NCBI GenBank assembly: GCA_001799635.1
Contig: MGTV01000029.1
Span: 65,309-129,308 of the forward strand
Reading direction: 5' to 3'
Source of the DNA: Elusimicrobia bacterium GWA2_62_23
Lineage (GTDB): Bacteria > Elusimicrobiota > Elusimicrobia > Elusimicrobiales > UBA9959
DNA: 64,000 nt
The notes beneath the pieces are model-generated. The model did no database searches and was not told where the DNA came from. It saw nothing but the letters and a program-made list of their open reading frames with translations. Below, piece after piece: positions 13,963 through 64,000 of this stretch. Position numbers and translations under genes: made by a program. The stretch's first letter is position 1, and the number at the start of each line of letters is the position of its first letter.

Positions 13963-14026
13963 TTAAATATACAATAATTAACATAGCGTAACAACCGGCC
14001 GCTCTCCGGAGAGCCGGCTTAAAACT

Positions 14027-20379: not shown

Positions 20380-21092
20380 CGGGTAAATCTGTACTTCACT
20401 ATGTTCCAGGCCACTATGAAGCCGTCCAGCCACTTTATCTTCTTGCCCTGCGCGTAGGAGCGCGGGTGGTAGTCCACGTCCACCTCGGTGATGGGGTAGC
20501 GGCCGGTCTTGAGCACCTTGGCGGTGATCTCGGCGCAGAATTCGAAGCCCTTGGACTTTATGCCCAGTTCGTTGAACAGCCGCACCGGCATCACCTTGTA
20601 GCCGCAGGCCTGGTCGGTCAGGCGCGAACCGTAGAGCAGGTTGGTGAGGAAGGTGACTATCCTGTTCGCCAGCAGGGAGAGCAGGCGGATCTTGCCGAAG
20701 CCCTTGCGGCTCCTGGACCCGAACACGACTTCGGCCTTCTTCTCCAGGATGGGGGCCAGCAGCGGCAGGTAGTCGCCCGGGTCCAGTTCCAGGTCGGCGT
20801 CCTGCACTATCAGGTAGTCGCCCGTGGCGGCGGCGGCGCCCGTACGGACCGCCGCCCCCTTGCCCAGGTTGTGCTCGTGGTAGAGCACCCTTATTTTTTC
20901 AGTATCGCAAGGGAACCGCTCTTTGAGCAGTTCCCGGGTCCCGTCGGTGGAGCCGTCGCATACGATCAGAAGTTCCGTCTTTACCGGCAGCGGCAGGGCC
21001 GCTACCTTGTCTATTACCTGGAGGACGGTGTTCTTCTCGTTGTAGCAGGGTATTATTACCGAGAGCTTAAGCAACGGCCCTGCCTGGGTCAT
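20376..21092 (-). CDS. GT2 polyprenyl-phosphate-type glycosyltransferase (DPM1-like, soluble), paralogue A
   Basis: Starts at MTQAGPLLKLSVIIPCYNEKNTV (ATG 21092-21090, overlapping the DegT stop by 1 nt). It shows CDGSTDGT and VQDADLE. The longer track ORF is an Arg-rich extension into the DegT gene. Confidence 0.85.
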   Translation of the reverse strand: MTQAGPLLKLSVIIPCYNEKNTVLQVIDKVAALPLPVKTELLIVCDGSTDGTRELLKERFPCDTEKIRVLYHEHNLGKGAAVRTGAAAATGDYLIVQDADLELDPGDYLPLLAPILEKKAEVVFGSRSRKGFGKIRLLSLLANRIVTFLTNLLYGSRLTDQACGYKVMPVRLFNELGIKSKGFEFCAEITAKVLKTGRYPITEVDVDYHPRSYAQGKKIKWLDGFIVAWNIVKYRFTR

Positions 21093-41466: not shown

Positions 41467-42159
41467 ATGAATATAAATTGTCCCCATTGCGGTAAGACCG
41501 TTCCCTCGGCGGATATCAATATCCAGTCCGCCATGGCCAAGTGCTCCTCCTGCAGCGCCGTGTTCGGCTTCGCCGACAAGGTGCCCGGCGCGCTGGTCCC
41601 GGACAAGCGCGCCGTGGAAATGCCGCGCGGCTATACGCTGGGTACCGACGGGGCGGACCTGGTGATAATCCGGCGCTGGATGTCGGCCAAGTTCGTCTTC
41701 CTGTTTTTCTTCTGCGTTTTTTGGGACGGCTTTTTGTTCTTCTGGTATTCCGTGGCCGTCTCCAAAGGCGCCCCGCTGATGGCCATCCTGTTCCCGCTTA
41801 TCCACGTGGCGGTGGGCGTGGGCCTGACCTATTTCACCATAGCCGGCTTCGTGAACCGGACCAGGATAAACGTGAACCCGGCCGAGGTCCGCATAAAGCA
41901 TTACCCGCTGCCCTGGGCCGGCAACAGGACCGTGCAGCGCGCCGAGATAGAGCAGCTTTTCTGCGAAGAGAAGGTCTCCCGCAACAAGAACGGCGCCAGT
42001 TTCAGCTACATCCTGAGCGCGGTGACCCGGTCGGGCGGCCGGCTCAAACTGGTCTCGGGCCTGGACAAGCCGGAAGACGCCCTGTTCCTGGAGCAGAAGA
42101 TAGAAGGTTACCTGGGGATTTCCGACCGCCCTGTGGCTGGAGAAATGCGACAGGTATAA
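41467..42159 (+). CDS. Hypothetical membrane protein with N-terminal zinc-ribbon
   Basis: 230 aa. CPHCG...CSSCS is a CxxC pair, followed by two TM helices and a soluble C-terminal domain. I recognise no family. Confidence 0.55.
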   Translation: MNINCPHCGKTVPSADINIQSAMAKCSSCSAVFGFADKVPGALVPDKRAVEMPRGYTLGTDGADLVIIRRWMSAKFVFLFFFCVFWDGFLFFWYSVAVSKGAPLMAILFPLIHVAVGVGLTYFTIAGFVNRTRINVNPAEVRIKHYPLPWAGNRTVQRAEIEQLFCEEKVSRNKNGASFSYILSAVTRSGGRLKLVSGLDKPEDALFLEQKIEGYLGISDRPVAGEMRQV

Positions 42160-42170
42160 AAGAGGACGTT

Positions 42171-43844
42171 ATGCCTACCGACATAGAGATAGCCCGTACC
42201 ATAAAGCTCAAGCACATTAACGACATCGCCGCCGGCCTCGGCGTGCCGCAGGACGACCTGGTGCATTACGGCAAGTACAAGGCCAAGCTGCCGCATAAAC
42301 TCATAGACCTGGAAAAGGTCAAGAAAAGCAAGCTGGTGCTGGTGTCCGCCATTTCACCTACGCCAGCCGGAGAGGGCAAGACCACCGTTTCCATAGGCCT
42401 CACGCTCGGGCTCAACAAGATAGACAAGAAGACCACCGTGGTGCTGCGCGAGCCCTCGCTTGGTCCGGTATTCGGCATCAAGGGCGGCGCCACCGGCGGC
42501 GGCTGGTCCCAGGTGCTGCCCATGGAGGACATCAACCTCCACTTCACCAACGATTTCGCGGCCATCGAGAAAGCGCACAACCTGCTGGCGGCGCTCATCG
42601 ACAACAATGTTCAGAACAAGAAGAACAACCTGGGCATAGATCCCCGTACCGTCACGTGGAAGCGCGTGATGGACATGAACGACCGCTCCCTGCGCAAGAT
42701 CATAGTGGGCCTGGGCGGCACCATGAGCGGCGTGCCGCGCGAGACCGGCTTCGACATAGTGGCCGCTTCGGAAGTTATGGCCATCTTCTGCCTCTCCAAC
42801 GACCTGGCGCACCTCAAGGAGAAGCTCGGCAACATTTTCGTGGGCTACACCTACGACCGCAAACCGGTGTACGCCCGCGACCTCAAGGCCAACGGCGCCA
42901 TGGCCGCCCTGCTCAAGGACGCCATCATGCCGAACCTGGTGCAGACCAGCGAAGGCACCCCCGCCATCATCCACGGCGGGCCTTTCGCCAATATCGCCCA
43001 CGGCTGTAATTCCATCATAGCCACGCGCATGGGCATGAGCCTGTCCGAGTACGTGGTGACCGAGGCCGGTTTCGCTTTCGAACTGGGCGCGGAGAAGTTC
43101 CTGGACATCAAATGCCGCTACGCCGGGCTGTGTCCGAGCGCCGCGGTGCTGGTGGCCACGGTGCGCGCTCTGAAATATCACGGCGGCGTGGGGCTGAAAG
43201 AACTCGGCAAGCCCGACCCTGCCGCGGTGAAGAAGGGCCTGGAAAATTTGGAAAAGCACGTGGAGAACATGAAGCAGTTCGAGCTGTCCCCCGTGGTGGC
43301 CCTGAACCTTTTCGCCTCCGACACGCCGGAGGAGATCGCCGTGGTGAAGGCCAAGTGCGCCGAGCTGGGCGTGCCGGTGGCCGTGGCCGACGTCTGGGGC
43401 AAGGGCGGCGCCGGTGCCGTGGAGCTGGCCGAGATAGTGGCCCGCACCGTGGACGCCAAGAAGAGCTGCGGCTTCAAGCCGGTTTACGAGTGGGAATGGC
43501 CGGTGGAGAAGAAGATAGAGGCCATAGCTTCCAAGATGTACGGCGCGAAACACATAGACTACACCGCCAAGGCCAGGAAGGACCTGGAGAAGATAAACGG
43601 CCTGGGCCTGGACAAACTGCCGGTCTGTATAGCCAAGACGCAGAAGTCGCTGTCCGACAACCCCGACCTGATAGGCCGCCCGAAGGACTTCGTGGTGACG
43701 GTGCGCGAGATAGAGATAGCCTCGGGCGCCGGCTTCATCATCCCCATCACCGGCGACATCATGCGCATGCCCGGTTTGCCGGAGCATCCCGCTTCTGAAC
43801 ACATAGACATCGACGCCGACGGGAATATCACGGGACTTTTCTGA
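42171..43844 (+). CDS. fhs: Formate--tetrahydrofolate ligase
   Basis: Starts at MPTDIEIARTIKLKHI (ATG 42171). The track ORF from 41541 is a frame extension. It carries SPTPAGEGKTT (P-loop) and is 557 aa. Confidence 0.95.
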   Translation: MPTDIEIARTIKLKHINDIAAGLGVPQDDLVHYGKYKAKLPHKLIDLEKVKKSKLVLVSAISPTPAGEGKTTVSIGLTLGLNKIDKKTTVVLREPSLGPVFGIKGGATGGGWSQVLPMEDINLHFTNDFAAIEKAHNLLAALIDNNVQNKKNNLGIDPRTVTWKRVMDMNDRSLRKIIVGLGGTMSGVPRETGFDIVAASEVMAIFCLSNDLAHLKEKLGNIFVGYTYDRKPVYARDLKANGAMAALLKDAIMPNLVQTSEGTPAIIHGGPFANIAHGCNSIIATRMGMSLSEYVVTEAGFAFELGAEKFLDIKCRYAGLCPSAAVLVATVRALKYHGGVGLKELGKPDPAAVKKGLENLEKHVENMKQFELSPVVALNLFASDTPEEIAVVKAKCAELGVPVAVADVWGKGGAGAVELAEIVARTVDAKKSCGFKPVYEWEWPVEKKIEAIASKMYGAKHIDYTAKARKDLEKINGLGLDKLPVCIAKTQKSLSDNPDLIGRPKDFVVTVREIEIASGAGFIIPITGDIMRMPGLPEHPASEHIDIDADGNITGLF

Positions 43845-43870: not shown

Positions 43871-44938
43871 ATGAATAAGCATCATCACAATACATCATCC
43901 CCCTGCCCGCATTGCGGCCGCCGCGGCGGATTCCCGGCGCACCTGGCGCTCTCCGCGCTTTTCCTCGCCGCCGCCGTATTTTTCTGGTGGTCCGGCCGCC
44001 GAGGCGCGGCTGTCGCCGCCGCCCCGGACGCTGCCGCCAAGCCGGCCTCCATAGGCGCGCTCTCGGAGGAGAGGGTGGCCTACATGCTTTCTCCGGCCGG
44101 CGCCGACGCATGCGGTTCCTGCCTGACCGCGGCCGATAAATTCCTGCTTGGAAAAGTTGGGGTCGCCGCCGCGGCCAGGACCAGGGGCATGGTCCTGGTG
44201 AGGGCCGGGGAGTATCAGGTGGGGTCTCCGCCCGGAGTCGGCGATCCCGACGAACAGCCGAGGCACGCCGTGGCGCTTGACGCCTACTACCTGGACGCCC
44301 ACGAAGTGACGGTGTCCGACTATATGAAATTCGCCGAGGCCGTGCAGGCAAATTACCCGGAATGGGCGAAGCCGGCCGCTAAAGGCGGCACCTCCGCGGT
44401 CCGGGCCGACGCGGCCGCGGTCATAGCCAGCTGTCCCTCCTGCCCGGTGATGGGGGTTTCCCCCAAGGACGCGGACGCCTATTGTTCTTGGGCCGGTAAG
44501 CGCCTCCCCACCGAAGCGGAGTGGGAAGCCGCCGCCCGCGGCGGCACTGAAACGGCTTTCAGTTTCGGCGATTCTCCGGATGGGATAGGCGAATACGCCT
44601 GGTACGAGGTGAATTCCGGGGGCATGCCGCGCCCGGTGGGCACCAAAAAACCCAATCCTTTAGGCTTCTACGACATGCACGGGAATGTGTGGGAGTGGAC
44701 GGCGGACTTTTACGACAAAGGATACTACGCGGCGAGCCCCAAACGGTCTCCCGCGGGTCCGGAGAAAGGCAGGGACCATGTCCTGCGCGGCGGTTCCTGG
44801 GCTTTCGACCCGGGATCCCTGCGGTCCGGCAACAGGGCCAGCAGCGCCAAGGCCAATGACGACATAGGTTTCCGGTGCGCGGCGGGAAAGGCTGAAATAG
44901 ACCGCCTCGCCGAGGCGGACGCCGCCGCGGCCATCTAG
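43871..44938 (+). CDS. Formylglycine-generating-enzyme (SUMF1/FGE-sulfatase) domain protein, membrane anchored
   Basis: 355 aa with an N-terminal CPHCG plus a TM helix. FGE-domain motifs are GNVWEWTADFY, RGGSW and a terminal FRC. Confidence 0.8.
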   Translation: MNKHHHNTSSPCPHCGRRGGFPAHLALSALFLAAAVFFWWSGRRGAAVAAAPDAAAKPASIGALSEERVAYMLSPAGADACGSCLTAADKFLLGKVGVAAAARTRGMVLVRAGEYQVGSPPGVGDPDEQPRHAVALDAYYLDAHEVTVSDYMKFAEAVQANYPEWAKPAAKGGTSAVRADAAAVIASCPSCPVMGVSPKDADAYCSWAGKRLPTEAEWEAAARGGTETAFSFGDSPDGIGEYAWYEVNSGGMPRPVGTKKPNPLGFYDMHGNVWEWTADFYDKGYYAASPKRSPAGPEKGRDHVLRGGSWAFDPGSLRSGNRASSAKANDDIGFRCAAGKAEIDRLAEADAAAAI

Positions 44939-46065
44939 AGCAGATCTTCTTCTTCTTTCGGCAGGAACCAGCGCTGGGCGGCGAAGGCCGGCAGTACCGC
45001 GCTGGCTATCAGCACGCCCGTCAGCACCGAATACTGCGTCCCGTCCAGGATCCCTTCCTTCGAGCCGTAGACCGCCGCCATCAGGCCGAAGGTGAGCCCG
45101 GTTGACATCAGCAGGGTGAAGCTCCAGCGGTCTTCCGGGAAATAGCGGGCGGCCAGAAAATAAACGCCGGAGAACTTCGCCAGCTGCTTTACCAGGAACA
45201 AAGCGATGAAAAGCCCCGCCGCGCCCAGCAGCGCCGGCGGGTACACCTGCATGCCGGCCGTTATGAAGAAGAAAGGCGTGACGAAGGCGTACGCCACGGT
45301 GCGCAGGCGGCTCTTTACCGCGGCTTGGGCGCCGGCCAGCTGCGGCGCCAGCGCGAGGCCGAAGAGGAAGGCCGGCAGCATGGCCTGTCCGGCGCCCAGC
45401 TCGGCGAGGTAGATGAAGAAGAGCAGGACCAGGAAGACGTACTTTATCTCCGGCTCTATTACCTTGCCGGCCAGCGCGCGGCGGCTCATGAGCCAGCCGG
45501 AAAAGCGCCCGGCGAAGAGCAGGAAGGCGCCGGCCGCGGCCAGCAGCAGCAGGGCGGCGGCGGTGACTTTGAGGAAGGCCGCGCTGAGCGCCAGCGCCGT
45601 CAGGGTATTGGTAAGGAAGGTGCAGGCCATCAGCAGTTTACCTGTCTTCTTCCTCCCCAGGCCGGTTTCGGTGACCACGGAATAGACCACGGCCAGCGAG
45701 GTCTCGGAGAGGGCTATGCCGGCCAGCAGCGACGCCTGCAGGCTCCAGCCGGCGGCGTAGCGGCAGAAAAGCGCGCCGGCCGCGAAAGGCGCCAGGAAGG
45801 AGAGCAGGCCTATGGCCGCGGCCTGCCGGAAATTGTCCTTGAGGAGCTTCGCGTCCACTTCCGCCCCGGCGAGGAAGGTGAGCAGGATCCCGCCGAAGGC
45901 GGCCAGGTAGTTCATCCAGCCGGCCGGTTCCAGGCCCAGGCCGCCGGCGGTCAGGCCCAGCAGGATCTCAAAGACGGCCACGGACAGGCCGAACTTCAGG
46001 CTCAGCGCGCTGGCCGCGAAGACCAGCAGGCCTGCCAGCAGGGGGGTAGCGTCGGGTAGCGTCAT
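44935..46065 (-). CDS. Cation:proton antiporter (Na+/H+ exchanger, CPA family)
   Basis: 376 aa with ~11 TM helices and the typical FLAGAEVD motif. Its stop overlaps the FGE-gene stop at CTAG. Confidence 0.8.
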   Translation of the reverse strand: MTLPDATPLLAGLLVFAASALSLKFGLSVAVFEILLGLTAGGLGLEPAGWMNYLAAFGGILLTFLAGAEVDAKLLKDNFRQAAAIGLLSFLAPFAAGALFCRYAAGWSLQASLLAGIALSETSLAVVYSVVTETGLGRKKTGKLLMACTFLTNTLTALALSAAFLKVTAAALLLLAAAGAFLLFAGRFSGWLMSRRALAGKVIEPEIKYVFLVLLFFIYLAELGAGQAMLPAFLFGLALAPQLAGAQAAVKSRLRTVAYAFVTPFFFITAGMQVYPPALLGAAGLFIALFLVKQLAKFSGVYFLAARYFPEDRWSFTLLMSTGLTFGLMAAVYGSKEGILDGTQYSVLTGVLIASAVLPAFAAQRWFLPKEEEDLL

Positions 46066-46071
46066 AACAGC

Positions 46072-46110
46072 TCCTTGAAAATAAAAACCTCTACCTTTGA
46101 GGGGTAGAGG
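46072..46110 (-). terminator. Rho-independent terminator after dctP
   Basis: A 9-bp stem, ACCTCTACC (46086-46094) / GGTAGAGGT (46102-46110), followed on the minus strand by TTTTTATTTT. Confidence 0.65.
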
Positions 46111-46180
46111 TCATCAGCGCCTTCGCGCGGTTCCCCCGGGGGGCCGGGGCGGCGGACATCATCGCCGTGGTTCAATTGTA

Positions 46181-49918: not shown

Positions 49919-50116
49919 TCAGTTCCTTTTGGAGGTGCGTATGAAATTTTCTATGGACCTGTCGTAGGTGCGCTCCGCTTCGGGTGTAAAATAGCAGCCC
50001 GGCAGTTCGCCGTTCTCCCTGTGGTAGGCCACGCAGTCGCAGCAGACGCCCTTGCGGGAGCAGGGTTCGTAGGTGCAGGCGCAACTCGCCTTGTTCGAAT
50101 TCTTTTTACAATCCAT
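49919..50116 (-). CDS. Small cysteine-rich protein (8 Cys in 65 aa), uncharacterised family
   Basis: [44 protein letters not shown] recall similar conserved small DUF-type proteins. It ends 2 nt upstream of the ridA start. Confidence 0.6.
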
Positions 50117-50222
50117 GGGAGCGGCTTCTTTCTTCCCATATTTTACTATATTGAGCTTCCCCCGCGGTCCCGTTCGGGGCTTAACATCCGGCGGCCTATC
50201 TTGCTATTATCGTCTTTACCGT

Positions 50223-51449
50223 ATGAAGACACTTTTCCCGGTGCTTTTATCCGCGTTCGCAGCCGCGTACTACCTGCTTGGTCCTGGGCGTTCTACCGGC
50301 CGTATGCCCGGGGCCGGGGTCCTCACGGCCTTTCCCAGTCCGTTGGGGGGCAATGTCTGCGCCGCTTATTCCATTTTTAAGGACGAGGCAGGAGGCCTGC
50401 TGGTGGCCGGAGTGGCTTCGGACAAGCGCGAAACTTTTCATTCCTGTGTCTGGCGCCTCGGGGCTTCGGGGGCTCCTGATCCCGGTTTCGGGGCCGGGGG
50501 CCAGGTTTGTTCCTCCGGCGAGGAGTGGGCCTGGGCCGCGGTTCCAGGCGCGGATGGGCGATTTTATTCTGCTGGGATAAACGGCCGCGACTGGAAGCGG
50601 TCCAGGAGCGCCTTCTTAAGATGCTATACCCGTGAGGGCCTGCCTTGCCCCGGTTTCGGAGAGGAGGGACTGGTTTTACTGCACCCGCCGCGCCGTGGCT
50701 ACGCCGCGGTTTTCGCCGCGGCCTTTACGGGTTCCTCTGTCTTCGCGGCCGGAGCGGTAACCGACTCCGGCGGAGTTACCCGCCCCGGGATCTGGGAGGT
50801 GGACCTTTCCGGCAAGCCTTCCTCGAAATTCCTTAAAGGCGGTTTTTTCTCTCCGGAGACTCCGCCCGGGTCCAGGGATTCCCGTATAAACGCGCTGGCC
50901 GCGGGCCCCGGCTTCCTGCTGGCCGGCGGCAACCTTGACTGGCGCGAGGCGGCGCATTGGAAGTTCCTGCCCGGGGGGCCGGGAGGGGAACTCGTACGCG
51001 GTCCGGCGGGAACCATACGAACCCTTTATGTAAGGGGAAAAGATATTTTCGCGGGGGGCTTCAGGTACGGGGACCCGGCGAAAGGGCACGCCGAGACGGG
51101 CATCATTTTCAGATTGCCGGGGCACGAAGTGACCGAGCTGGATTCGCTGGAGAACCAGGAGCTCTTCTCCGTTACCGGCGCGGCCGGCGGCCTCTTTGCC
51201 GCTGGGTACGCGGACGAAGGGGGGGCGGTCAAGGCGGCGGTCTGGGGGATATCCGCCGGAGGAAAGCTCCGTTCCGGCTTCGGCCGGGGAGGAGTAAAGG
51301 TTTTCCCGGACGAACTTGGCGGCAGGGAGAGCCGGATATACTCGCTGACGCCTTACGGCGGCGGATTGGCGGCGGCCGGTTTCTCGCGGCGCGCGGACGG
51401 CGTAATGACGCTGGCCGTGTGGAAGCTGCAGGCCCTCTCCGGACGTTAA
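50223..51449 (+). CDS. Secreted repeat protein (delta-60-repeat / beta-propeller-like)
   Basis: Starts at MKTLFPVLLSAFAAAYYLLG (signal-like). D/P-x-FG-x-GG motifs recur about every 60 aa (DPGFGAGGQV, CPGFGEEGLV, RSGFGRGGVKV), each followed by AAG/AGG strands. Confidence 0.6.
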   Translation: MKTLFPVLLSAFAAAYYLLGPGRSTGRMPGAGVLTAFPSPLGGNVCAAYSIFKDEAGGLLVAGVASDKRETFHSCVWRLGASGAPDPGFGAGGQVCSSGEEWAWAAVPGADGRFYSAGINGRDWKRSRSAFLRCYTREGLPCPGFGEEGLVLLHPPRRGYAAVFAAAFTGSSVFAAGAVTDSGGVTRPGIWEVDLSGKPSSKFLKGGFFSPETPPGSRDSRINALAAGPGFLLAGGNLDWREAAHWKFLPGGPGGELVRGPAGTIRTLYVRGKDIFAGGFRYGDPAKGHAETGIIFRLPGHEVTELDSLENQELFSVTGAAGGLFAAGYADEGGAVKAAVWGISAGGKLRSGFGRGGVKVFPDELGGRESRIYSLTPYGGGLAAAGFSRRADGVMTLAVWKLQALSGR

Positions 51450-53838: not shown

Positions 53839-53907
53839 CCGTAATAGCGGTGCGTGTCTGGTAGGCAGTTAGTGCGGAGGTTGATAATCGGAGGTTTAAA
53901 TAAAATT

Positions 53908-54759
53908 ATGAACAAAACGTTAACGGCGATCGTACTGGCCCTTGTTCCCGCAGTGCTCGCGGCCGGGCCGGCTAGCGGCGGGGCTGCGGCCGAGCAATTG
54001 GGGGTCTCGCAAAACGCCCACGGCGCGGAGGCCGTTGGGCCTAAGGGAATGATAGTTTCTTACGGTTATTCCAGCGACTGCAAGATGGTCTACTTCGGCA
54101 GCGAGGGTTCCGGTTCCGGTCAGTCCTCTGGGGTATTGAGACTCGAAAGCGTCTATAAGGAAAAGGACTGTCCCAGCGGCGGGGACCTGCTTAATTGCCA
54201 GGAGCTTGAGGGGCAGCGGTTGCGTGCGGATGTGGAGGTGCGTATGGCGCCTCGCGAGCTTTACCCTTGGGAAAGTGAAAGCGTGGACGTCTGTCTGCAG
54301 GGTAAAGAGCTTATGGTGAAGCCCTGGAACGTATCCTATGAATATACCGTTTCCAAGACCAACGAGAACTGGCTGGCGGTCTACACTTTCTCCCCGACGG
54401 CTCGCAAGGCCTCGCATCCTGACCCTAAGGGGCTCACGTCCGAAGGGTACCATAAGACCGGAGCCGGCTATTCCGCGGTCTTTAAGGATAAGTGGGGCAG
54501 AGAGTATTCGGGTGAGAAAGTAGAAGTGCAGGTGCAGCTGTGGAGAAAGGGTTCCCTTCTGCGGCCGGCCAAAATGGTGGGGCGTGTGGGGGCGAAATTC
54601 GAAGCCGCCGGGGAATACCAGCTGGATTTTACTTCGGCGGATATCTCGGGCGCCCCTGACGCTAAGGGGTACTATCTCTCCTGGGGCTTCCGCCGCCTGG
54701 GGGGCATATCCCTGCCCGTTCTCGTTCAGGCGCGGGATGCTCTGAGCCCGCTGAATTGA
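53908..54759 (+). CDS. Hypothetical secreted protein (4 Cys)
   Basis: Preferred start is MNKTLTAIVLALVPAVLAAGPASG at 53908 (the track start is 53854). I recognise no domain. Confidence 0.55.
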   Translation: MNKTLTAIVLALVPAVLAAGPASGGAAAEQLGVSQNAHGAEAVGPKGMIVSYGYSSDCKMVYFGSEGSGSGQSSGVLRLESVYKEKDCPSGGDLLNCQELEGQRLRADVEVRMAPRELYPWESESVDVCLQGKELMVKPWNVSYEYTVSKTNENWLAVYTFSPTARKASHPDPKGLTSEGYHKTGAGYSAVFKDKWGREYSGEKVEVQVQLWRKGSLLRPAKMVGRVGAKFEAAGEYQLDFTSADISGAPDAKGYYLSWGFRRLGGISLPVLVQARDALSPLN

Positions 54760-54851
54760 CCTGTATCTCCGGTATTTGCCCATTGCGGATCGGGCGGGTT
54801 ATTTAGTGTTCAGGTGGGTGTTTAATCTGGAAAGATATCAGGGAGGTCTTG

Positions 54852-55436
54852 ATGACATCTCGAAGTTGGAGAACATACTCGGTCATGCTGTTCATGTTGC
54901 TTGCTGCGGCGCCCTCGGGCGCATTTGCGGCTGAAAACGAGAAGGTCCGCGAAATGCCGCTGAAGTTCGACCGTTATGAACTGTCGGTGCTCTACGATGC
55001 CACTGGGTATTTCACGCTCAGCGTGTTTGAAAAGTCCGCTGACGGCGCCGAAAAAGAGACCGTCTACGGACTACGCCGGGCTGCTATGTACCTGCCGCCT
55101 GGCTATAAGTCCGGGGAATGGATGCTCTTCTGGGGTGAGCAGCCTCCTGTTTACGAGGGGGGAGGTTTCAGCGCGGTTTCCAAGGATCCCTGGCTTGTCA
55201 GCTCCGCCGGCGGAGCCTGGCGCGTGGCCCGAGTCCCGCACACTTCGGGCAAGAACGGAATCTACACTCTGCTTCGGGTGCAGCCCGGCAGGGACGGCTC
55301 ACCCGAATTAGTCTATCTGAACGGGGACGGCGAGGAGGACGTTAATTCTCCCGACGGCTGGGCCGCGGACTCCAAACTTGTCCTGAACCCTGAGAAACCG
55401 GTACGTGTAAGACGGGTGAAATTTGTGGTCCGCTGA
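54852..55436 (+). CDS. Hypothetical secreted protein
   Basis: The ATG at 54852 lies 5 nt after a GGGAGG SD (54841-54846). The signal peptide is SVMLFMLLAAAPSGAFA. I recognise no domain. Confidence 0.55.
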   Translation: MTSRSWRTYSVMLFMLLAAAPSGAFAAENEKVREMPLKFDRYELSVLYDATGYFTLSVFEKSADGAEKETVYGLRRAAMYLPPGYKSGEWMLFWGEQPPVYEGGGFSAVSKDPWLVSSAGGAWRVARVPHTSGKNGIYTLLRVQPGRDGSPELVYLNGDGEEDVNSPDGWAADSKLVLNPEKPVRVRRVKFVVR

Positions 55437-58167: not shown

Positions 58168-58656
58168 ATGAAGAGAACATTATTCGCGCTGATCCTGTGC
58201 GCGGGTTTCGCCGGCGCGGTTTGCGCCGAGGACGCGGCTCCGGCCGTGAACCCGGCCGGCGAGCAGGTGCAGGCCAAAGAGCAGGTCCAGACCAGGGAGC
58301 AGGCGGGGGAGAAGGGCCAGGGAGAGATGAAGAAGAACCGCAAGGAACACCGCAAGGAAATGCGGGAAAAGCGCGGCGAAAAGCTCGAACAGAAAGGCGA
58401 GCGGCGCGAGAAGCGCGGCGAGGCCATGGAGAAGAAGGGCGAAAAGATGCAGGAGAACGCCGAAAAAATGCGCGAGCAGGCGGCCAAGCTGGAGGAGAAA
58501 GGGAACGAAAAGGCCGCAGCCAAACTGGAGCGCAACGCCAAGAGAAAAGAGAACCGCGGCGAAAAGCTGGAGAACAAAGGCGAACGCATGCAGAAGCCGG
58601 GAGAGCGCGAACAGCGCCGCGGCGAGCGCAAGCAGCGCGGGGGCAAAGGGAAATAA
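58168..58656 (+). CDS. Secreted Lys/Glu/Arg-rich repeat protein
   Basis: 162 aa with signal peptide MKRTLFALILCAGFAGAVCA. The rest is almost entirely charged, with an internal duplication (EKRGEKLEQKGER / ENRGEKLENKGER). A strong terminator follows. Confidence 0.65.
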   Translation: MKRTLFALILCAGFAGAVCAEDAAPAVNPAGEQVQAKEQVQTREQAGEKGQGEMKKNRKEHRKEMREKRGEKLEQKGERREKRGEAMEKKGEKMQENAEKMREQAAKLEEKGNEKAAAKLERNAKRKENRGEKLENKGERMQKPGEREQRRGERKQRGGKGK

Positions 58657-58674
58657 CGAGCTTTGGTCATGAAA

Positions 58675-58709
58675 AGAGCCCCGGCCTTAAAAGCGGGGCT
58701 CTTTTTTTT
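58675..58709 (+). terminator. Rho-independent terminator
   Basis: The stem AGAGCCCCG (58675-58683) / CGGGGCTCT (58694-58702) is followed by a T8 run ending at 58709. Confidence 0.8.
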
Positions 58710-58714
58710 GGGCC

Positions 58715-58743
58715 TTGAAATTTCGGGTTTCGTCTGCTACACT
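58715..58743 (+). promoter_or_regulatory. Sigma70-type promoter (TTGAAA-17 nt-TACACT) upstream of paralogue P1
   Basis: TTGAAA at 58715-58720, a 17-nt spacer ending GTTTCGTCTGC, and TACACT at 58738-58743. It closely resembles the promoter at 60075-60103. Confidence 0.6.
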
Positions 58744-58830
58744 CTACTAACGGATAACCTGTTTTTTCAGTTTCCCGCGCGGGAAAGGTGGAAAGCAGGC
58801 GCGCTTATTTGTTGAGGACAGGGGGCTGCT

Positions 58831-60078
58831 ATGGCCGACAACTCTAACAACAGGAAGAAGACGCTGGTCATCGGCGTGCTGGCGTTCCTGCTGACCGGCG
58901 GCGGGGTCTTCCTCTTTTTCGTCATACAGGGCTCCAACGACCTTACCGGGGCCAATAAAAAGAACACGTTCACTTACGGCGGCGCCGCGCGCGAGGCTAC
59001 CGCGTCCTTCTTCAAATTCATCGGCTTCGACGACGTGGAATCTATAGCCAAAGAGGGGCCCAAGGAAAGGCTGCGCATGAAGGAATACGCGGCTGCCGGG
59101 ATACTTGAGGACGGCGGGATACGGTCGGGAGCGGATTCTGATATTCCTTGGGCGCCCCCGGCAGCATCGGGACGCTCCGCGGCCTCCTCCAACATTCCAA
59201 GGATGGGCGGCAGGGGGACTTCCGGGATCGGCGGCATAGGCGGCGGGGGGAGCAAATCTTCCGGAGGAGTTTCGCGCTTCGGGGGCGGCAGCGGCGCGGG
59301 CAATACAAAAATATCGGCCGCGGTGCAGGAGGGGGGGGGCGGGGTCAAGGGCAAGGACTCGTTGGCCTCCCTGGCAAAGGCCAGGGCTATGTTGGGAGAC
59401 GGGCTGCGCAGCGGTTCCGCGTCCACGGCCAAGGGCAAGTGGGATTCCAGCTTTGGTGTGGGCCGTTCCGCAGGGGGCGGCGGCAATAGCCTGGCCTACG
59501 GCAAGACCGGCCTGGTTAACCTGGATAAGATCAAGAAAGGGGAGGTGGACAATCTGAAAACCACGGATCCCAAGTCCCTTAAAGTGCCGGAAGTGGGAGC
59601 CCCTGTTGCGGATGAGAAAGCCGCCGCCGAGAAGGCCGCGGCGGATAAAGAAGCGGCCGAGGATGCCATTAAGAAAAGCATGGCGTCGTCCATGCTGGGG
59701 GCTATGGGCCAGGGGTTATCCAACTCCATAGGGGGAAAAGGCGACACCGGGGATCCTGACTCCAGGTCCGGTGCTCCCGAAAGCCGGGATTCCGGGGACT
59801 GCTCAAGCGGGGCCACCGCGGGGGTTTGCTCGGCCGCTGTTGGCGCGCAGATCCCATCGGACACGAGGGTTTCCTACAACAAGGTGGGAAGTAACGCCAA
59901 CGGAGACGTTTATGAAGTGATTTATGAGGGGACCGGGAAAGGGATAACCCCTGATTTGAAGGGGACCCCGGTGTCTTACAAGGATACGGCCATAGTTCAG
60001 GTCACGCCGGATGGACCCCAGATACTGTCTATGGGTGCTATAAACGAAACCCCTGCGGCGGTTTCGACCAGCCCTTGA
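58831..60078 (+). CDS. Membrane-anchored Gly/Ser-rich protein, paralogue P1 (unknown family)
   Basis: 415 aa with a basic N-terminus and a TM helix (LVIGVLAFLLTGGGVFLFFVI), then a long G/S/A-rich region. It shares the motif LKTTDPKSLKVPEVGAPV with P2 and P3. Confidence 0.65.
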   Translation: MADNSNNRKKTLVIGVLAFLLTGGGVFLFFVIQGSNDLTGANKKNTFTYGGAAREATASFFKFIGFDDVESIAKEGPKERLRMKEYAAAGILEDGGIRSGADSDIPWAPPAASGRSAASSNIPRMGGRGTSGIGGIGGGGSKSSGGVSRFGGGSGAGNTKISAAVQEGGGGVKGKDSLASLAKARAMLGDGLRSGSASTAKGKWDSSFGVGRSAGGGGNSLAYGKTGLVNLDKIKKGEVDNLKTTDPKSLKVPEVGAPVADEKAAAEKAAADKEAAEDAIKKSMASSMLGAMGQGLSNSIGGKGDTGDPDSRSGAPESRDSGDCSSGATAGVCSAAVGAQIPSDTRVSYNKVGSNANGDVYEVIYEGTGKGITPDLKGTPVSYKDTAIVQVTPDGPQILSMGAINETPAAVSTSP

Positions 60079-60103
60079 CAAGTCAAGGTTTGTCTGCTAT
60101 AAC
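60075..60103 (+). promoter_or_regulatory. Sigma70-type promoter (TTGACA-17 nt-TATAAC) upstream of paralogue P2
   Basis: TTGACA at 60075-60080 (overlapping the P1 stop), a 17-nt spacer ending GTTTGTCTGC, and TATAAC at 60098-60103. Confidence 0.6.
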
Positions 60104-60206
60104 ATTATCGTAAAAATTAGCTTTGCCTTGAACGCCCCGGGTGGCTGTGTTAAGGAAAGTTCGAATTTATTTTTGCGGGGATACGGCGGGGAAAACTGGC
60201 GGGATT

Positions 60207-61145
60207 ATGATAAAACTCCAGACTAAAAAATCCAAGACTACGCAGTACATCATAGGCGGCGTAGTGGCGGTGATCATCCTCGGCCTCTGGGTGTCGCTGC
60301 CGCTCATGAACAATTCCTCCCTGGACGCCTCCATGGCGGCGGGCAACCCCTTCCGCTCCAAGGTCGCTGACATCTCCACTCTGGGCAGCGACATCCCCTC
60401 GGAAGGCGGCGCACCCGGCTCGCCTCTGAGCGGCGAGATGATAAATAATCCCGCCACTTCCGGCGAGGACATCGCTTCCTCCCTCTTTCAGTCCGGTCTG
60501 ATGGAAGAAGCCCCTTTGACCGAATCCGTCTCCGCGGACGCCTCCGCCGCGCCTTCTTCCGTACCTTCCGCCAGTTCCGGCGCGCCCATGCCTGCCGCCC
60601 CGATGGGGAAGCTGAACACGGTAGCCTCCATAAGCGGCGGCAACTCCAATTCCATGACGGCCGGCGGCCTGCACAATAAGTTTTTCGGCGGCGGCGGCGC
60701 GAAAGCGGAATTCGCCCCTGCCACCGGTCCCGATCTTAAGAAACTCGCCTCTTCTGACGACAAGAGGTCCGCCCTTGTGTCCATGCTCAACAACACGGCC
60801 GAGAAGAGCCAGCTGGCGGCCAAGACCGGCAGTATGGACGCGGCCAAGGGCGGTGCTACCGCCGCTTTCACCAACAGCGCCAAGCTCGGCGGCTCCGATC
60901 TGGACGACAAACTGGAGAACCAGTCCGCTTCCTCCGGATTACAATTGGGACAGACAGCGGCTGACCTTAAGAAGAACGACCCTAATATCAACAAGAACAA
61001 GGTTAACGTGCCCGAACCTAAGCCGGTAAAAGACGACAAGGCAGATGAAGAGTTCAAGAAAATGATCATACAGATGATATTCCAGAGCGTGATAGGGCCC
61101 ATGTTTGGTGCTATGGCCAACAGTATGTTCCCGGCCGCTAAATAA
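60207..61145 (+). CDS. Membrane-anchored Gly/Ser-rich protein, paralogue P2 (unknown family)
   Basis: The preferred start, MIKLQTKKSKTTQYIIGGVVAVIILGLWVSL at 60207, is chosen by analogy to P1. The track start is GTG at 60141. It has the motif LKKNDPNINKNKVNVPEPKPV and then the Met-rich MIIQMIFQSVIGPMFGAMANSMF. Confidence 0.6.
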   Translation: MIKLQTKKSKTTQYIIGGVVAVIILGLWVSLPLMNNSSLDASMAAGNPFRSKVADISTLGSDIPSEGGAPGSPLSGEMINNPATSGEDIASSLFQSGLMEEAPLTESVSADASAAPSSVPSASSGAPMPAAPMGKLNTVASISGGNSNSMTAGGLHNKFFGGGGAKAEFAPATGPDLKKLASSDDKRSALVSMLNNTAEKSQLAAKTGSMDAAKGGATAAFTNSAKLGGSDLDDKLENQSASSGLQLGQTAADLKKNDPNINKNKVNVPEPKPVKDDKADEEFKKMIIQMIFQSVIGPMFGAMANSMFPAAK

Positions 61146-61169
61146 TTTCAGGAAACTTCGGAGGATTTT

Positions 61170-62927
61170 ATGAACGACTACAATGAAAAGAGAGAGAAGA
61201 AAGGCGGTTTCTGGTCCGCCCTTGCCGGTCTCGTTCGCGGCGGCTCTTCCGCGGCCGGTTCGGGTTTTGGGTCCGCAGGGAGCGCGGCGGGCGGCCTTGG
61301 CGGTCTTTTCGCCACAAAGGCCGGCGTTGTGGGAATGATCCTGGGCGGGGCTACCATAGCCGCAGGAGTCGGCGTGGTCTATAATTTCATCGGGCCCTCC
61401 TCCAAACCGGCCTATTCGCCCGAACTCTTTCAGAACAGTTATTACGAGGAAGAGGCCACCAAGGCCGGCAGGGAGCGTGCGCAAGCCCGCGACGCTTCTG
61501 CCGCCGCGTCCTCCACGCTCGACATGTTCAAGGAACAGGCCAGGAAGGACGGCATAGGACTGGATGGAGAATCAGCTTCCGGCCAGCCGCCGGATGCCGT
61601 TTCCCAGCTCCCCGGAGACGCCCCTTCAGCGGATGCCGCGGCCCCCGAGGCCCCGGCCGGGCAGGGCGCCGGCGCGCCCAAGCTCCAGGCCGCTTCCGGT
61701 TTCGGTTCTAAAGGCGGCGGCGGCGGCTCCTCCATGCCGCGCATGCAGGGCGGCGGCGGCCTGTCCGGCGGCATAGGCAGCCAGTTCTCTTCCGTGTACC
61801 GGCCTCCGGCCCAGGCCGTGGGCGGCAAAATGTCAGGTATGACCGCTTCCGCGGCTCGCGTCAAGAATTCTCCTAAATACGCGGTGCCGAACTTCAATAA
61901 GAGAGGAGCCTTTGGCCAGGCCAAGTTCGCCAATAAAATGGCGAACGCGGGCCGGTCCATGAGCGACACCGGCGCCAAAAGCACCACCGCCATTCCTTTT
62001 GACAGCGCGAAGCAGACCGGCACTGGCGAGGTCGGCACCCCCGAGGCCGGCACCGGCCTGGGCGGGGCCGGCTTGTCCAACGGTTCCAAACTGAAAGGTA
62101 ACGATCCCAGCCTTAACAACAGCGAGGTCACTCCTCCCAAAGTGCCGGAGCCGGAGAACGTTTCCCCGTGGAAAGCGTGGACCGACCGGGCCATGTACGC
62201 CATGCTGGCGGCTACGGTACTTATCCTCATCACCAACATGCTGGCTAAGTTTGCCAAGACCACGCCGTGGATGTACACGGCGGCCCTGATTACCGGCTAT
62301 GCCGCCATGGCTGCTGCCGCTCTGGTTATGGTCTCCGGCCTTATGCTCATGACAAAATACGGCCAGAAATGGCAGGGCGCCATGTACCTTGTGGCAGGCG
62401 CCATGCTGATGTGGCAGGCTTACCAGGCCTTGGCCGGTGTTGGCGAGGCCGCCACTAAGAACGGTGTGGACATGGGCAGTATGGGCAAGGCTTGTCCGGG
62501 CTATAACCAGCCGCAGGCCTTCGGCAACGGTCTGGCCGCGAACGGCGGCGATGTGAGCAAGATGAGCTCCGCCGGCTGGGAGACTACCGGGACAGGGGCG
62601 GACGCCAAACTTGTGGCCCCTGAGGGTGTGACTACCGTTGACGGCAACTATTCCATCCCGAACGCTTCCGGCGGCGGGTCCAATCTGGTAAGCCCCACCG
62701 GCGAAGCCGCCGGAAAGGTTACACCGGGCAACAATGTCATGGATGCCAGCAGCAACAAGATCGGCACCCTGAACTCGAAGGGGGAGTTTGTGCCGGATAC
62801 CCCGAAAACCACGGTGCAGCCGCAGACTTCGGTGCAACCTTCGACGCAGGTCACGACTGAGCAGGTCATCGGCGGCCAGAACCTGCAGCCTACGGACGTC
62901 AGCCCTGAGCAGGCTGCGATGGATTAA
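61170..62927 (+). CDS. Membrane-anchored Gly/Ser-rich protein with extra TM bundle, paralogue P3 (unknown family)
   Basis: 585 aa with a GGAGG SD upstream. It has an MNDYNEKREKKGGFW N-terminus, a TM anchor, STLDMFK, GAFGQAK and LKGNDPSLNNSEVTPPKVPEPENV. About 3-4 TM helices and a T/Q/P-rich tail follow. Confidence 0.65.
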   Translation: MNDYNEKREKKGGFWSALAGLVRGGSSAAGSGFGSAGSAAGGLGGLFATKAGVVGMILGGATIAAGVGVVYNFIGPSSKPAYSPELFQNSYYEEEATKAGRERAQARDASAAASSTLDMFKEQARKDGIGLDGESASGQPPDAVSQLPGDAPSADAAAPEAPAGQGAGAPKLQAASGFGSKGGGGGSSMPRMQGGGGLSGGIGSQFSSVYRPPAQAVGGKMSGMTASAARVKNSPKYAVPNFNKRGAFGQAKFANKMANAGRSMSDTGAKSTTAIPFDSAKQTGTGEVGTPEAGTGLGGAGLSNGSKLKGNDPSLNNSEVTPPKVPEPENVSPWKAWTDRAMYAMLAATVLILITNMLAKFAKTTPWMYTAALITGYAAMAAAALVMVSGLMLMTKYGQKWQGAMYLVAGAMLMWQAYQALAGVGEAATKNGVDMGSMGKACPGYNQPQAFGNGLAANGGDVSKMSSAGWETTGTGADAKLVAPEGVTTVDGNYSIPNASGGGSNLVSPTGEAAGKVTPGNNVMDASSNKIGTLNSKGEFVPDTPKTTVQPQTSVQPSTQVTTEQVIGGQNLQPTDVSPEQAAMD

Positions 62928-62995
62928 GTTCAACGGCACCAGTGAGATCAAGGCCAGTTGATGCCGCGGTCGTTGGGACATTTTAGGGAGGCGTT

Positions 62996-64000
62996 ATGAA
63001 CGACAATCTGCCTGACATAAACTTTAAGGAAAAGAAAGAAAAGAAGGGGGGCGCTATCGGCTGGCTCAGGGGCCGCCTGGGCATGGGCTCGCGCGGAGCC
63101 ATGGGCGAAGCCGGCATAAGCCCTTCCGCTATGAACGTCGGCAGGACCGCCTTCGGCGCCGGCAAGTTCGGCGCTTCTTCCGGAATAGCGGGACTTCTGG
63201 CCGGCAAGGCCGGGGTCCTCGCTACCATAGCCGCGGTGGCGGTGGCCAGCGGCGTCTACCTGGCTAATAACGCGCCGGCGCCTTCAAGCAACAGCGCCTT
63301 CAATTCCGGCGGCAAGGTGGCGGATAACTACGTGCCCGCCATTCTGCGCAGTCAGGCGGCCAACCAGGGTTCCTCTCTCGACATGTTCAAGGACACCAAC
63401 AGGGGCGCCGGCCTGGCCATGGAGGAAGACCCTTCCAAGAAGGCCGCCAAACCGGCCGGGGACACGCCTGCTTCAGCCGAGGAGGAGGCCGCCCAGGAGC
63501 AGCCCGCTCCCGACCAGGGCAACATGGCCCAGGAGATGATGGGCAAGCTGCAGGGAGGGAACATAGGGGAACTGAGCACCTCCATGGGCGGCGGCTCCAA
63601 TAAGTTCTCGTCAATGGGCGGGTTTGGTAACAAGTTCAACCAGGGGCAGATGGGCGCCAAGACCGGCTTCACTTCGGGGATCGGTTCAGGTTTCCAGGGC
63701 ATGCCCAAGTTCGACGCGCGCAAAGCCAAGATGACGGCCATGAAACCCTCCGCCAAGCCGGTCTTTTCCAAGGCCGGGGCCGGCAAGAAAGGCAAGTTCG
63801 GCACCGGAGCCTTCGGCCAGGCCAAGGGGCTGAGGGCCACCCAGAAATCCTACACTGGTAACCAGACCGATAAATTATCCGGCACGCAGGACGCGGCCTG
63901 GACCGGGGCCACGCCCGACGGCAGCGTGGACGGCGGCGGCGGCCTCAGCGACGGCGGGGCGGGCATCATGAGCTCTCCTTCGCTCGATAACGCCGGCGGC
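62996..64000 (+). CDS. Membrane-anchored Gly/Ser-rich protein, paralogue P4, partial (runs off the window)
   Basis: It is not in the ORF track because there is no stop in the window. The ATG at 62996 follows an AGGGAGG SD. My translation is MNDNLPDINFKEKKEKKGGAIGW...AGKAGVLATIAAVAVASGVYL...SSLDMFKDT...GAFGQAKGL, closely paralleling P3. Confidence 0.65.
   Translation, partial: MNDNLPDINFKEKKEKKGGAIGWLRGRLGMGSRGAMGEAGISPSAMNVGRTAFGAGKFGASSGIAGLLAGKAGVLATIAAVAVASGVYLANNAPAPSSNSAFNSGGKVADNYVPAILRSQAANQGSSLDMFKDTNRGAGLAMEEDPSKKAAKPAGDTPASAEEEAAQEQPAPDQGNMAQEMMGKLQGGNIGELSTSMGGGSNKFSSMGGFGNKFNQGQMGAKTGFTSGIGSGFQGMPKFDARKAKMTAMKPSAKPVFSKAGAGKKGKFGTGAFGQAKGLRATQKSYTGNQTDKLSGTQDAAWTGATPDGSVDGGGGLSDGGAGIMSSPSLDNAGG

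Follow-up and report, generated by a model that had tools for sequence, protein, structure and literature searches.

In the diderm envelope, proteins of the TolA/TonB type are held in the inner membrane by a single transmembrane (TM) helix with the N-terminus in the cytoplasm, and beyond this anchor a long region of biased composition extends into the periplasm. The phylum Elusimicrobia is widespread and has very few members in culture, and its envelope biology is poorly known. Here we analysed a 64,000-nt stretch (the window) of contig MGTV01000029.1 from Elusimicrobia bacterium GWA2_62_23, which ends within a cluster of six membrane-protein genes, P1-P6, that belongs to the core genome, is strictly syntenic throughout the order and has no detectable relatives elsewhere. 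As the best explanation, which we put forward tentatively, P1-P4 would be four of the six components (perhaps seven, with an outer-membrane-like gene) of an envelope complex that is encoded in the core genome and is specific to Elusimicrobiales. Its resemblance to known systems is one of logic only. The predicted layout is like that of TolA/TonB, with an N-in single TM anchor and then a long, biased periplasmic region. However, the cluster has no sequence, profile or fold match to these proteins and no TolQR or ExbBD partners, its biased region carries invariant motifs, in P2-P5 this region appears to return to the membrane through C-terminal helices, and six paralogous or associated genes are present where TolA/TonB is a single gene.

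A first-pass annotation of the window, made from the sequence alone, had described P1-P4 as consecutive + strand genes. The four open reading frames (ORFs) are present at exactly the coordinates that it gave, with P4 still open at base 64000. An exact-protein look-up of P3 led to several groundwater metagenome contigs that carry this gene. One of these, L001, is identical to the window across the whole 12,831-nt overlap and supplies the sequence past base 64000. The genes and their parts (positions in amino acids, aa) are as follows.

P1, 58831-60078, + strand: 415 aa, with a basic N-tail and TM1 at aa 14-34.
P1 core, aa 116-262: basic Gly-rich motifs, namely IPRM plus a Gly run, LASLAKARAMLGDGLRSGSA and LKTTDP..VPEVG.
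P1 C-terminal parts: Met-rich helix at about aa 281-295 and acidic variable domain with two Cys at aa 301-415.
P2, 60207-61145, + strand: 312 aa, the minimal member, with TM1 at aa 15-35 and then an acidic Ser/Ala/Pro segment.
P2 core, aa 141-272: basic motifs ending in LKKNDPNINKNKVNVPEPKP, followed by a C-terminal Met-rich hydrophobic helix at aa 283-308.
P3, 61170-62927, + strand: 585 aa, with a conserved, putatively cytoplasmic N-tail (MNDYNEKxEKKGGF) and a Gly-zipper-like TM1 at aa 51-74, then a helix with STLDMFK and an acidic Pro/Ala linker.
P3 core, aa 173-332: basic, with IPRMQGGGGLSGGIGxQFxSVYRPP, KGAFGQAK, LKGNDPSLN..PPKVPEP and VSPW.
P3 C-terminal parts: three TM helices at aa 333-430 and a poorly conserved Thr/Gln/Pro tail at aa 431-585.
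P4, 62996-64000 in the window, + strand: the first 335 of 474 codons (full gene at L001 11827-13251), with the N-tail MNDN..KEKKEKKGG, TM1 at aa 71-90, SSLDMFK and an acidic linker.
P4 core: Gly/Phe/Lys/Met-rich with GAFGQAK; VSPW and four hydrophobic helices fall past the window end.

All of the peptides listed in the first-pass annotation were found, including the TM anchors, IPRMGGRGTSGIGGIGGGG, SSMPRMQGGGGLSGGIGSQF, STSMGGGSNKFSSMGGFGNKF, MND..KEKKGG, S(T/S)LDMFK and GAFGQAK, as were the LKxNDP..VPE(P/V) strings and the Met-rich helices. By direct reading, the TM1 helices open with LVIGVLAF (P1), YIIGGVV (P2), GLFATKAG (P3) and GLLAGKAG (P4). The orthologues of 59 loci align with P2 from residue 1 of the ATG at 60207; these alignments do not support an alternative upstream GTG start at 60141. 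The G+C content at third codon positions (GC3) is 0.72-0.75 in P1-P3, compared with 0.85-0.92 for most genes of the window. Low GC3 is also seen in the nearby secreted or hypothetical genes 50073-51449 and 53854-55436.

A scan of one genome per GTDB species yielded 60 loci, in which the gene order was read by tblastn; all 60 are assigned to Elusimicrobia, Elusimicrobiales or Elusimicrobiaceae. Orthologues are present in 50-59 of the approximately 60 loci (P1 in 50 and P2 in 59), and P3 has at least 228 homologues, every named one of which is a 'hypothetical protein' from Elusimicrobia metagenome-assembled genomes. The gene order does not vary between loci: MurC-like ligase, flavodiiron protein, (U162), P1, P2, P3, P4, P5, P6, (deoxyhypusine synthase) and D287, in which U162 and D287 are two further genes described below. 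Of 61 loci, 39 have the complete P1-P6 set, and most of the others lie on contigs too short for the whole cluster. The setting is that of housekeeping rather than mobile genes; given the conserved housekeeping genes on its flanks, an origin of the cluster from a mobile element or phage was rejected.

The ratio of nonsynonymous to synonymous substitution rates (dN/dS, Nei-Gojobori method) is 0.09-0.32 for P1-P5, with values of 0.10-0.25 for P1 and 0.10-0.14 for P2. Within P3, it is 0.18-0.26 in the Gly-rich core (aa 130-330) versus 0.3-0.7 in the C-terminal tail. Within-population single-nucleotide polymorphisms among L002-L006 were too few for the corresponding polymorphism ratio (pN/pS). When 20 P3 orthologues were aligned, the Gly-rich region proved to be a chain of near-invariant motifs (IPRMQGGGGLSGGIGxQFxSVYRPP, KGAFGQAK, GAGLGGAG, LKGNDPSLN, PPKVP and VSPW). 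The region had been called low-complexity; it is Gly-rich, but it is a strongly conserved series of motifs and not a loose Gly/Ser filler. The Thr/Gln/Pro-rich tail reported for P3 is also present, but it is clade-specific. Because the comparative data combine purifying dN/dS values with this motif chain and with intact orthologues, the possibility that these are decaying ORFs, which the first-pass annotation had left standing, is refuted: P1-P4 are intact genes under purifying selection. As a separate observation, P3 is seemingly duplicated in L041 (3148-5920) and L051 (10001-12451) and split in L027 (10001-11747).

No known family was recognized in the cluster. No family was consistently hit when P1-P6, D287 and U162 were scanned against Pfam and NCBIfam, either alone or over 20-42 orthologues, and the same was true of a Pfam scan of the 20 P3 orthologues; the best scores for P1-P4 were E-values of 0.1 or worse (10-12 bits against cut-offs of 27-969). 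Profile searches of the PDB with P3, P1, P5, P6 and D287, together with a single-sequence phmmer search with P6, returned coiled-coil noise only (E-values of 0.001 or worse), and matches of the ClyA/Hbl/Nhe type (E-values of 0.02-0.2) were judged not significant. The fold comparison covers P5 only, the best Foldseek hit of its model against the PDB having an E-value of 1.0, since the model of P3 is confident only in its three TM helices and is too poor elsewhere for a meaningful structure search. These results bear out the initial impression that the proteins have no recognizable domain. An exhaustive HMMER search with the P3 profile against 1.84 billion cluster representatives found 375 proteins at an E-value of 0.001 or better; among ten of these that were looked up, only two have a source name, and both are from Elusimicrobia. 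Nothing on this cluster was found in literature searches, and its named homologues are hypothetical proteins except for a few P5 orthologues labelled 'DUF456 domain-containing' by NCBI, which agrees with the earlier view that the family is undescribed. The DUF456 label was not reproduced by Pfam scans of 42 P5 orthologues. By sequence and fold, the family looks new and outside every known family tested.

Two further identities were tried and rejected. A PEP-CTERM signal does not fit because VPEP lies 10-20 residues ahead of a hydrophobic helix, with no Arg-rich end and no family match; in addition, the string varies (VPxPE in the P3 consensus and VPEVG in P1). A permease of the FtsX/MacB type is alike in coarse topology only, as there is no match to the FtsX Pfam model and the C-terminal inter-helix loops are only 4-6 aa; ABC ATPase genes were absent from the approximately 60 loci.

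The relatedness among the members was examined with profiles built from 47-58 orthologues per gene and compared using hhalign, with reversed target profiles as the control. P3 and P4 are clear paralogues (BLASTP E=3e-13; hhalign probability 100%, E=5e-57, full length), and the P3-family hidden Markov model (HMM) finds P4 in the window and vice versa, whereas P1 and P2 have no BLAST relation to each other or to P3/P4. At the profile level, P2 matches P3 at 95% over the LKxNDP..PP..P segment and the following helix, P1 matches P6 at 91% from IPRMQ plus the Gly run through the amphipathic helix, and P1 matches P2 at 82%. The remaining pairs are weak (P1 and P3, 35%; P2 and P4, 47%; P1-P3, P1-P4 and P2-P4 together span 11-47%). 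With reversed profiles, the non-TM matches drop below 1%, and the shared module is not explained by composition alone. A TM-only match still reaches 73% in reverse, and TM similarity was therefore excluded as evidence. Because the forward matches vanish with reversed profiles, P1, P2, P3, P4 and P6 share an ancient, putatively periplasmic module, and P5 is an associated protein with no detectable relation to them. The claim of four clearly related paralogues thus stands for P3 and P4 but is reduced, for P1 and P2, to a remotely shared module of approximately 90-160 residues.

The motif order common to P1, P2, P3 and P6 is (I/V)P(R/K)M plus a Gly run, an amphipathic helix with K-G-x-F/L, LKxxDP, VPE and a hydrophobic helix. 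A P3/P4-type protein is defined by the N-tail MNxYNExEKKGG, a Gly-rich TM1 with GLFATKAG, S(T/S)LDMF(K/R), KGAFGQAK, (LKGN)DPSL, VSPW and 3-4 C-terminal TM helices; the full set is found in both P3 and P4. P3, P4 and P6 also have a common N-terminal peptide, MN(D/F)YNE..EKKxG. An HMM search of all ORFs of the window detected no further paralogue in the 64 kb.

As the first-pass annotation had expected, the family continues past base 64000: on L001, P4 is completed and is followed by P5 and P6, and another gene, D287, lies beyond them. P5 is a 523-aa protein that is 100% identical to NCBI locus A2049_10380. The other two are as follows.

P6, L001 15297-18392, about 2.5 kb past the window end: 1031 aa here and 800-1300 aa elsewhere.
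D287, L001 19590-20453: 287 aa, with a signal peptide and the C-terminus ..GAGVKF.

P6 is a mosaic. Its first ~360 residues, which comprise the N-tail, the TM helix, the shared module and the amphipathic helix, are 90-100% identical between sister species, whereas the identity of the remaining 450-900 residues falls abruptly to 0-30% in the same pairs, in which P2-P5 are mostly 80-98% identical. In the pair L024/L028, for example, the N-parts are 94% identical and the C-parts have no detectable similarity; in the more distant pair L023/L033, the two parts are 77% and 65% identical, respectively. This mosaic pattern of identity implies that the C-part was replaced by recombination and not by point divergence, as a cassette swapped between sister species. 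For the C-part of the P6 studied here, only three homologues could be detected among 5.8 billion proteins. D287 and the C-terminal region of P1 are likewise mosaic in some species pairs. In 17 of 29 loci, D287 lies 126-264 nt past P6; in 9, the deoxyhypusine synthase gene stands between the two. Judged by its signal peptide and C-terminal Phe, and with no family match, the conserved D287 product looks like a secreted protein that forms an outer-membrane barrel.

The six proteins show a recurrent anatomy. Basic residues precede a single N-terminal TM helix in all of them, as had been noted for the window genes (a short basic N-terminus and one TM anchor), and each paralogue repeats a charge pattern of acidic linker (pI 4-5), basic core (pI 9.2-10.1, net charge +3 to +9) and acidic variable end. 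The core is rich in Gly, Ser, Lys and aromatic residues. The hydrophobic element takes the form of a Met-rich helix for P1 and P2; P6 has an amphipathic helix in its place, and P3-P5 each have 3-4 TM helices. Conserved cysteines are found after TM1: P5 has six that are invariant and others that are near-invariant, P6 has C372/C433/C435 as well as a C-terminal pair, and P1 has one pair. Because the conserved Cys all follow TM1, an extracytoplasmic, oxidising location is suggested for this part. Together with the basic residues before TM1, they support the earlier proposal of membrane-anchored proteins with a Gly-rich region that is probably extracytoplasmic.

Structure prediction, which the first-pass annotation had recommended, was carried out for P3 and P5 using AlphaFold2 and was confident for the TM bundles only. 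The mean predicted local distance difference test score (pLDDT) is 52 for P3, with values of ~90 only at aa 333-430, and 54 for P5, in which only aa 340-470, a Cys-rich helical hairpin leading into the TM helices, are confidently modelled. The cores have pLDDT values below 50, which at 20-42 aligned sequences is a weak hint that the Gly-rich cores may be disordered.

Two promoter-like sites were found on the + strand of the window.

58715..58743, + strand: sigma-70-like promoter before P1, TTGAAA-N17-TACACT, with an extended -10 (TGC ahead of it).
60075..60103, + strand: promoter-like site before P2, TTGACA-N17-TATAAC, with a TGC extended -10.

The 12-mer GTCTGCTAYAMY, which forms the extended -10 region, occurs in the 64 kb only at 58732-58743 and 60092-60103, with 0 occurrences expected, and suggests that P1 and P2 may be under common regulation. 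The pattern before P1 recurs at an equal upstream distance in eight other species, and the site before P2 is also conserved in L033 and L047. The median gaps across genomes are 151 nt (P1-P2), 25 nt (P2-P3), 33 nt (P3-P4), 132 nt (P4-P5) and 340 nt (P5-P6). These gaps fit a division into the units P1, P2-P3-P4, P5 and P6. The operon proposed for P2-P4 on the basis of the gaps of 24 and 68 nt and the GGAGG-type sites before P3 and P4, all of which were confirmed in the window, is thus a tight unit in more than 50 genomes.

On this basis, we tentatively favour a heteromeric, inner-membrane-anchored envelope scaffold with variable distal domains. Each protein would be inserted in the inner membrane, keep its short basic N-terminus on the cytoplasmic side and expose a segment of 250-350 residues to the periplasm, which in P2, P3, P4 and P5 would be tied back to the membrane by the C-terminal hydrophobic helix or the 3-4-helix bundle. 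The ordered short motifs in the cores of P1, P2, P3, P4 and P6 would serve as contact surfaces for heteromeric assembly, and the resulting scaffold, lying along the inner membrane on its periplasmic side, would bind anionic envelope material, namely peptidoglycan, the outer membrane or the head groups of phospholipids. To this scaffold, P6 (and, less markedly, P1 and P3) would add acidic, fast-evolving, cassette-swapped distal domains, whose counterpart would itself change quickly, for example phage, adjacent cells or a surface. The variability of P6 and P1 lends some support to the idea of a scaffold with a variable head.

Several points weigh against this scaffold. The assembly of P1-P6 is predicted from their genes, and P5 gives hhalign probabilities below 7% with all other members. 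The N-in topology with an extracytoplasmic core is deduced from the positive-inside rule and Cys conservation, and the outer-membrane-like status of D287 likewise comes from its sequence. The low confidence of the AlphaFold2 models may stem from shallow alignments (20 and 42 sequences) and not from disorder. The linkage to murC and D287 may be historical rather than functional. Finally, a purely internal scaffold does not readily account for a periplasmic domain that is hypervariable in a diderm organism.

A possible but rather unlikely extension is a new envelope organelle, in which five or six paralogues would co-assemble via Gly/aromatic linear motifs, fold on binding or form a gel-like mesh, span the periplasm and present the recombining P6 and P1 ectodomains outside, possibly via the outer-membrane protein. 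It would serve as an Elusimicrobia-specific interface for recognition, adhesion or defence.

Improbable, though worth weighing, is a trans-envelope secretion or surface-display base, with P1-P5 as platform or conduit, D287 as the outer-membrane pore and the C-domain of P6 as the cargo (an adhesin, receptor or effector). The conserved N-module and mosaic C-domain of P6 recall polymorphic surface proteins and toxins, an OMP-like (outer-membrane protein) gene that is itself mosaic in some pairs lies directly downstream, the TM1 helices are rich in Gly zippers, and P5 orthologues give weak Gly-zipper Pfam matches. However, neither an ATPase nor a secretin nor other recognizable machinery, such as an usher or POTRA component, was found in or beside the cluster in the approximately 60 loci. 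The first-pass annotation had suggested looking past base 64000 for further members, ATPases or secretins; further members were found, but no ATPase or secretin follows, and its suggestion of a secretion- or motility-related structure is weakened for that reason. In addition, the gap data reveal no immunity-like small ORF after P6, whose long and putatively cytoplasmic N-tail and uncleaved-looking anchor include no secretion signal, and Pfam, NCBIfam and the PDB offer no match.

Less probable still are lineage-specific factors of cell-wall growth or division that would replace FtsN, FtsQLB, RodZ or TolA-like proteins and whose periplasmic linear motifs would regulate peptidoglycan synthases. 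The cluster belongs to the core genome and is conserved next to a MurC-like ligase, its bitopic proteins have conserved short motifs within otherwise low-complexity periplasmic regions, and the N-terminal peptide common to P3, P4 and P6 would also suit this role. However, the flavodiiron gene stands between MurC and the cluster, with no other dcw-type genes nearby, SPOR, POTRA, LysM and other cell-wall-binding domains were not found in the proteins, and cassette-like hypervariability such as that of P6 is unexpected for a divisome protein.

We consider it very unlikely that the cluster encodes a pilus- or filament-like polymer, namely a minor-pilin-like operon with P6 as a large PilY1-like partner, although tandem paralogues with a conserved N-terminal TM helix, variable C-ends and one very large variable member are present and C-terminal Cys pairs exist. 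The proteins have no G|FTLIE leader, the residue at +5 of the GLFATKAG motif is Lys and not Glu by direct reading, and N_methyl and pilin models of Pfam and NCBIfam are not matched. Moreover, the putatively cytoplasmic N-tails of 45-70 aa and the 3-4-helix TM bundles of P3, P4 and P5 are unlike extractable pilins. A type IV pilin identity was rejected on the same grounds.

The chance that the ORFs are spurious or decaying low-complexity frames in GC-rich DNA is negligible, for although the GC3 of P1-P3 is below that of most window genes, long antisense ORFs overlap P1-P4 and the composition is Gly/Ser/Ala-rich, the intact orthologues of similar length, their dN/dS values, the invariant motif columns and the conservation of gene order, short gaps and promoter-like sites all speak against it. 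Whatever probability the readings given here leave over belongs to something not yet conceived.

Some neighbouring features also deserve description. U162 lies directly upstream of P1.

U162, 58168-58656, + strand: 162 aa, with a signal peptide and then Lys/Glu/Arg-rich repeats (EKGxxxxEK...).

It is followed by a terminator-like hairpin at ~58672-58708, was detectable in 8 of the approximately 60 loci and has no family match. In L009, a 458-aa ORF (13363-14739) with the motif Cys-x3-Cys-x2-Cys lies between P4 and P5 and encodes a putative B12-binding/radical-SAM enzyme; this may be an accessory modifier, or the insertion may be unrelated. A similar P4-P5 gap of ~1.6 kb in L008, L017 and L056 suggests, by its spacing only, the same insert.

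Elsewhere in the window, a fluoride riboswitch (Rfam RF01734, 41.6 bits) is located at 46098-46175 on the - strand, upstream of a Na+/H+ exchanger-family gene (44935-46065, - strand); the genes usually found under this riboswitch are crcB and eriC-F. A formate-tetrahydrofolate ligase ORF (41541-43844, + strand) encodes 767 aa, of which the Pfam domain covers residues 213-767 only, so that either the start was mis-called or an unannotated N-terminal extension of ~210 aa is present. A tRNA-Arg(CCG) gene predicted by ARAGORN at 20124-20215 (+ strand) is unusually long (92 nt) and lies inside a - strand ORF (18961-20433).

Our analysis defines a new set of protein families with clear boundaries, motifs and a testable topology. 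It is unusual in that strong purifying selection acts on Gly-rich sequence that looks disordered and that P6 carries a domain that appears to be cassette-swapped. Should these proteins indeed form an envelope structure, this would represent a new building principle for diderm envelopes and add a case of conserved linear motifs at work in the periplasm, and the hypervariability of P6 would be a sign of an arms race, in groundwater communities, against phage or neighbouring cells.

Three further known systems invite comparison. P3, P4 and P5 are like EsaA/YueB/Pip (YhgE) in having one TM helix, a putatively extracytoplasmic segment of 270-400 aa and a C-terminal multi-helix bundle, and a variable ectodomain is also present in the cluster, in P6. 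However, the Pip/YhgE models of Pfam and NCBIfam are not matched, the cluster includes no type VII ATPase, and instead of the long helical fibre of those proteins its ectodomain is Gly-rich and predicted to be unstructured, in an organism that is probably diderm. Minor-pilin operons of the fimU-pilVWXY1E type share with the cluster the tandem paralogues, the conserved hydrophobic N-helix, the divergent C-parts and a large variable neighbour, but the cluster lacks a prepilin leader, an N-methylation motif and pilin matches and has long N-tails and C-terminal TM bundles. The third comparison concerns SlpA of C. difficile, SapA of Campylobacter and the streptococcal M proteins. Although P6 has no sequence relation to these proteins, its surface exposure is putative and its anchor is an inner-membrane TM helix plus a Gly-rich module rather than an SLH, LPXTG or lipopolysaccharide-binding element, it is like them in joining a conserved anchor to an abruptly swapped, mosaic distal domain.

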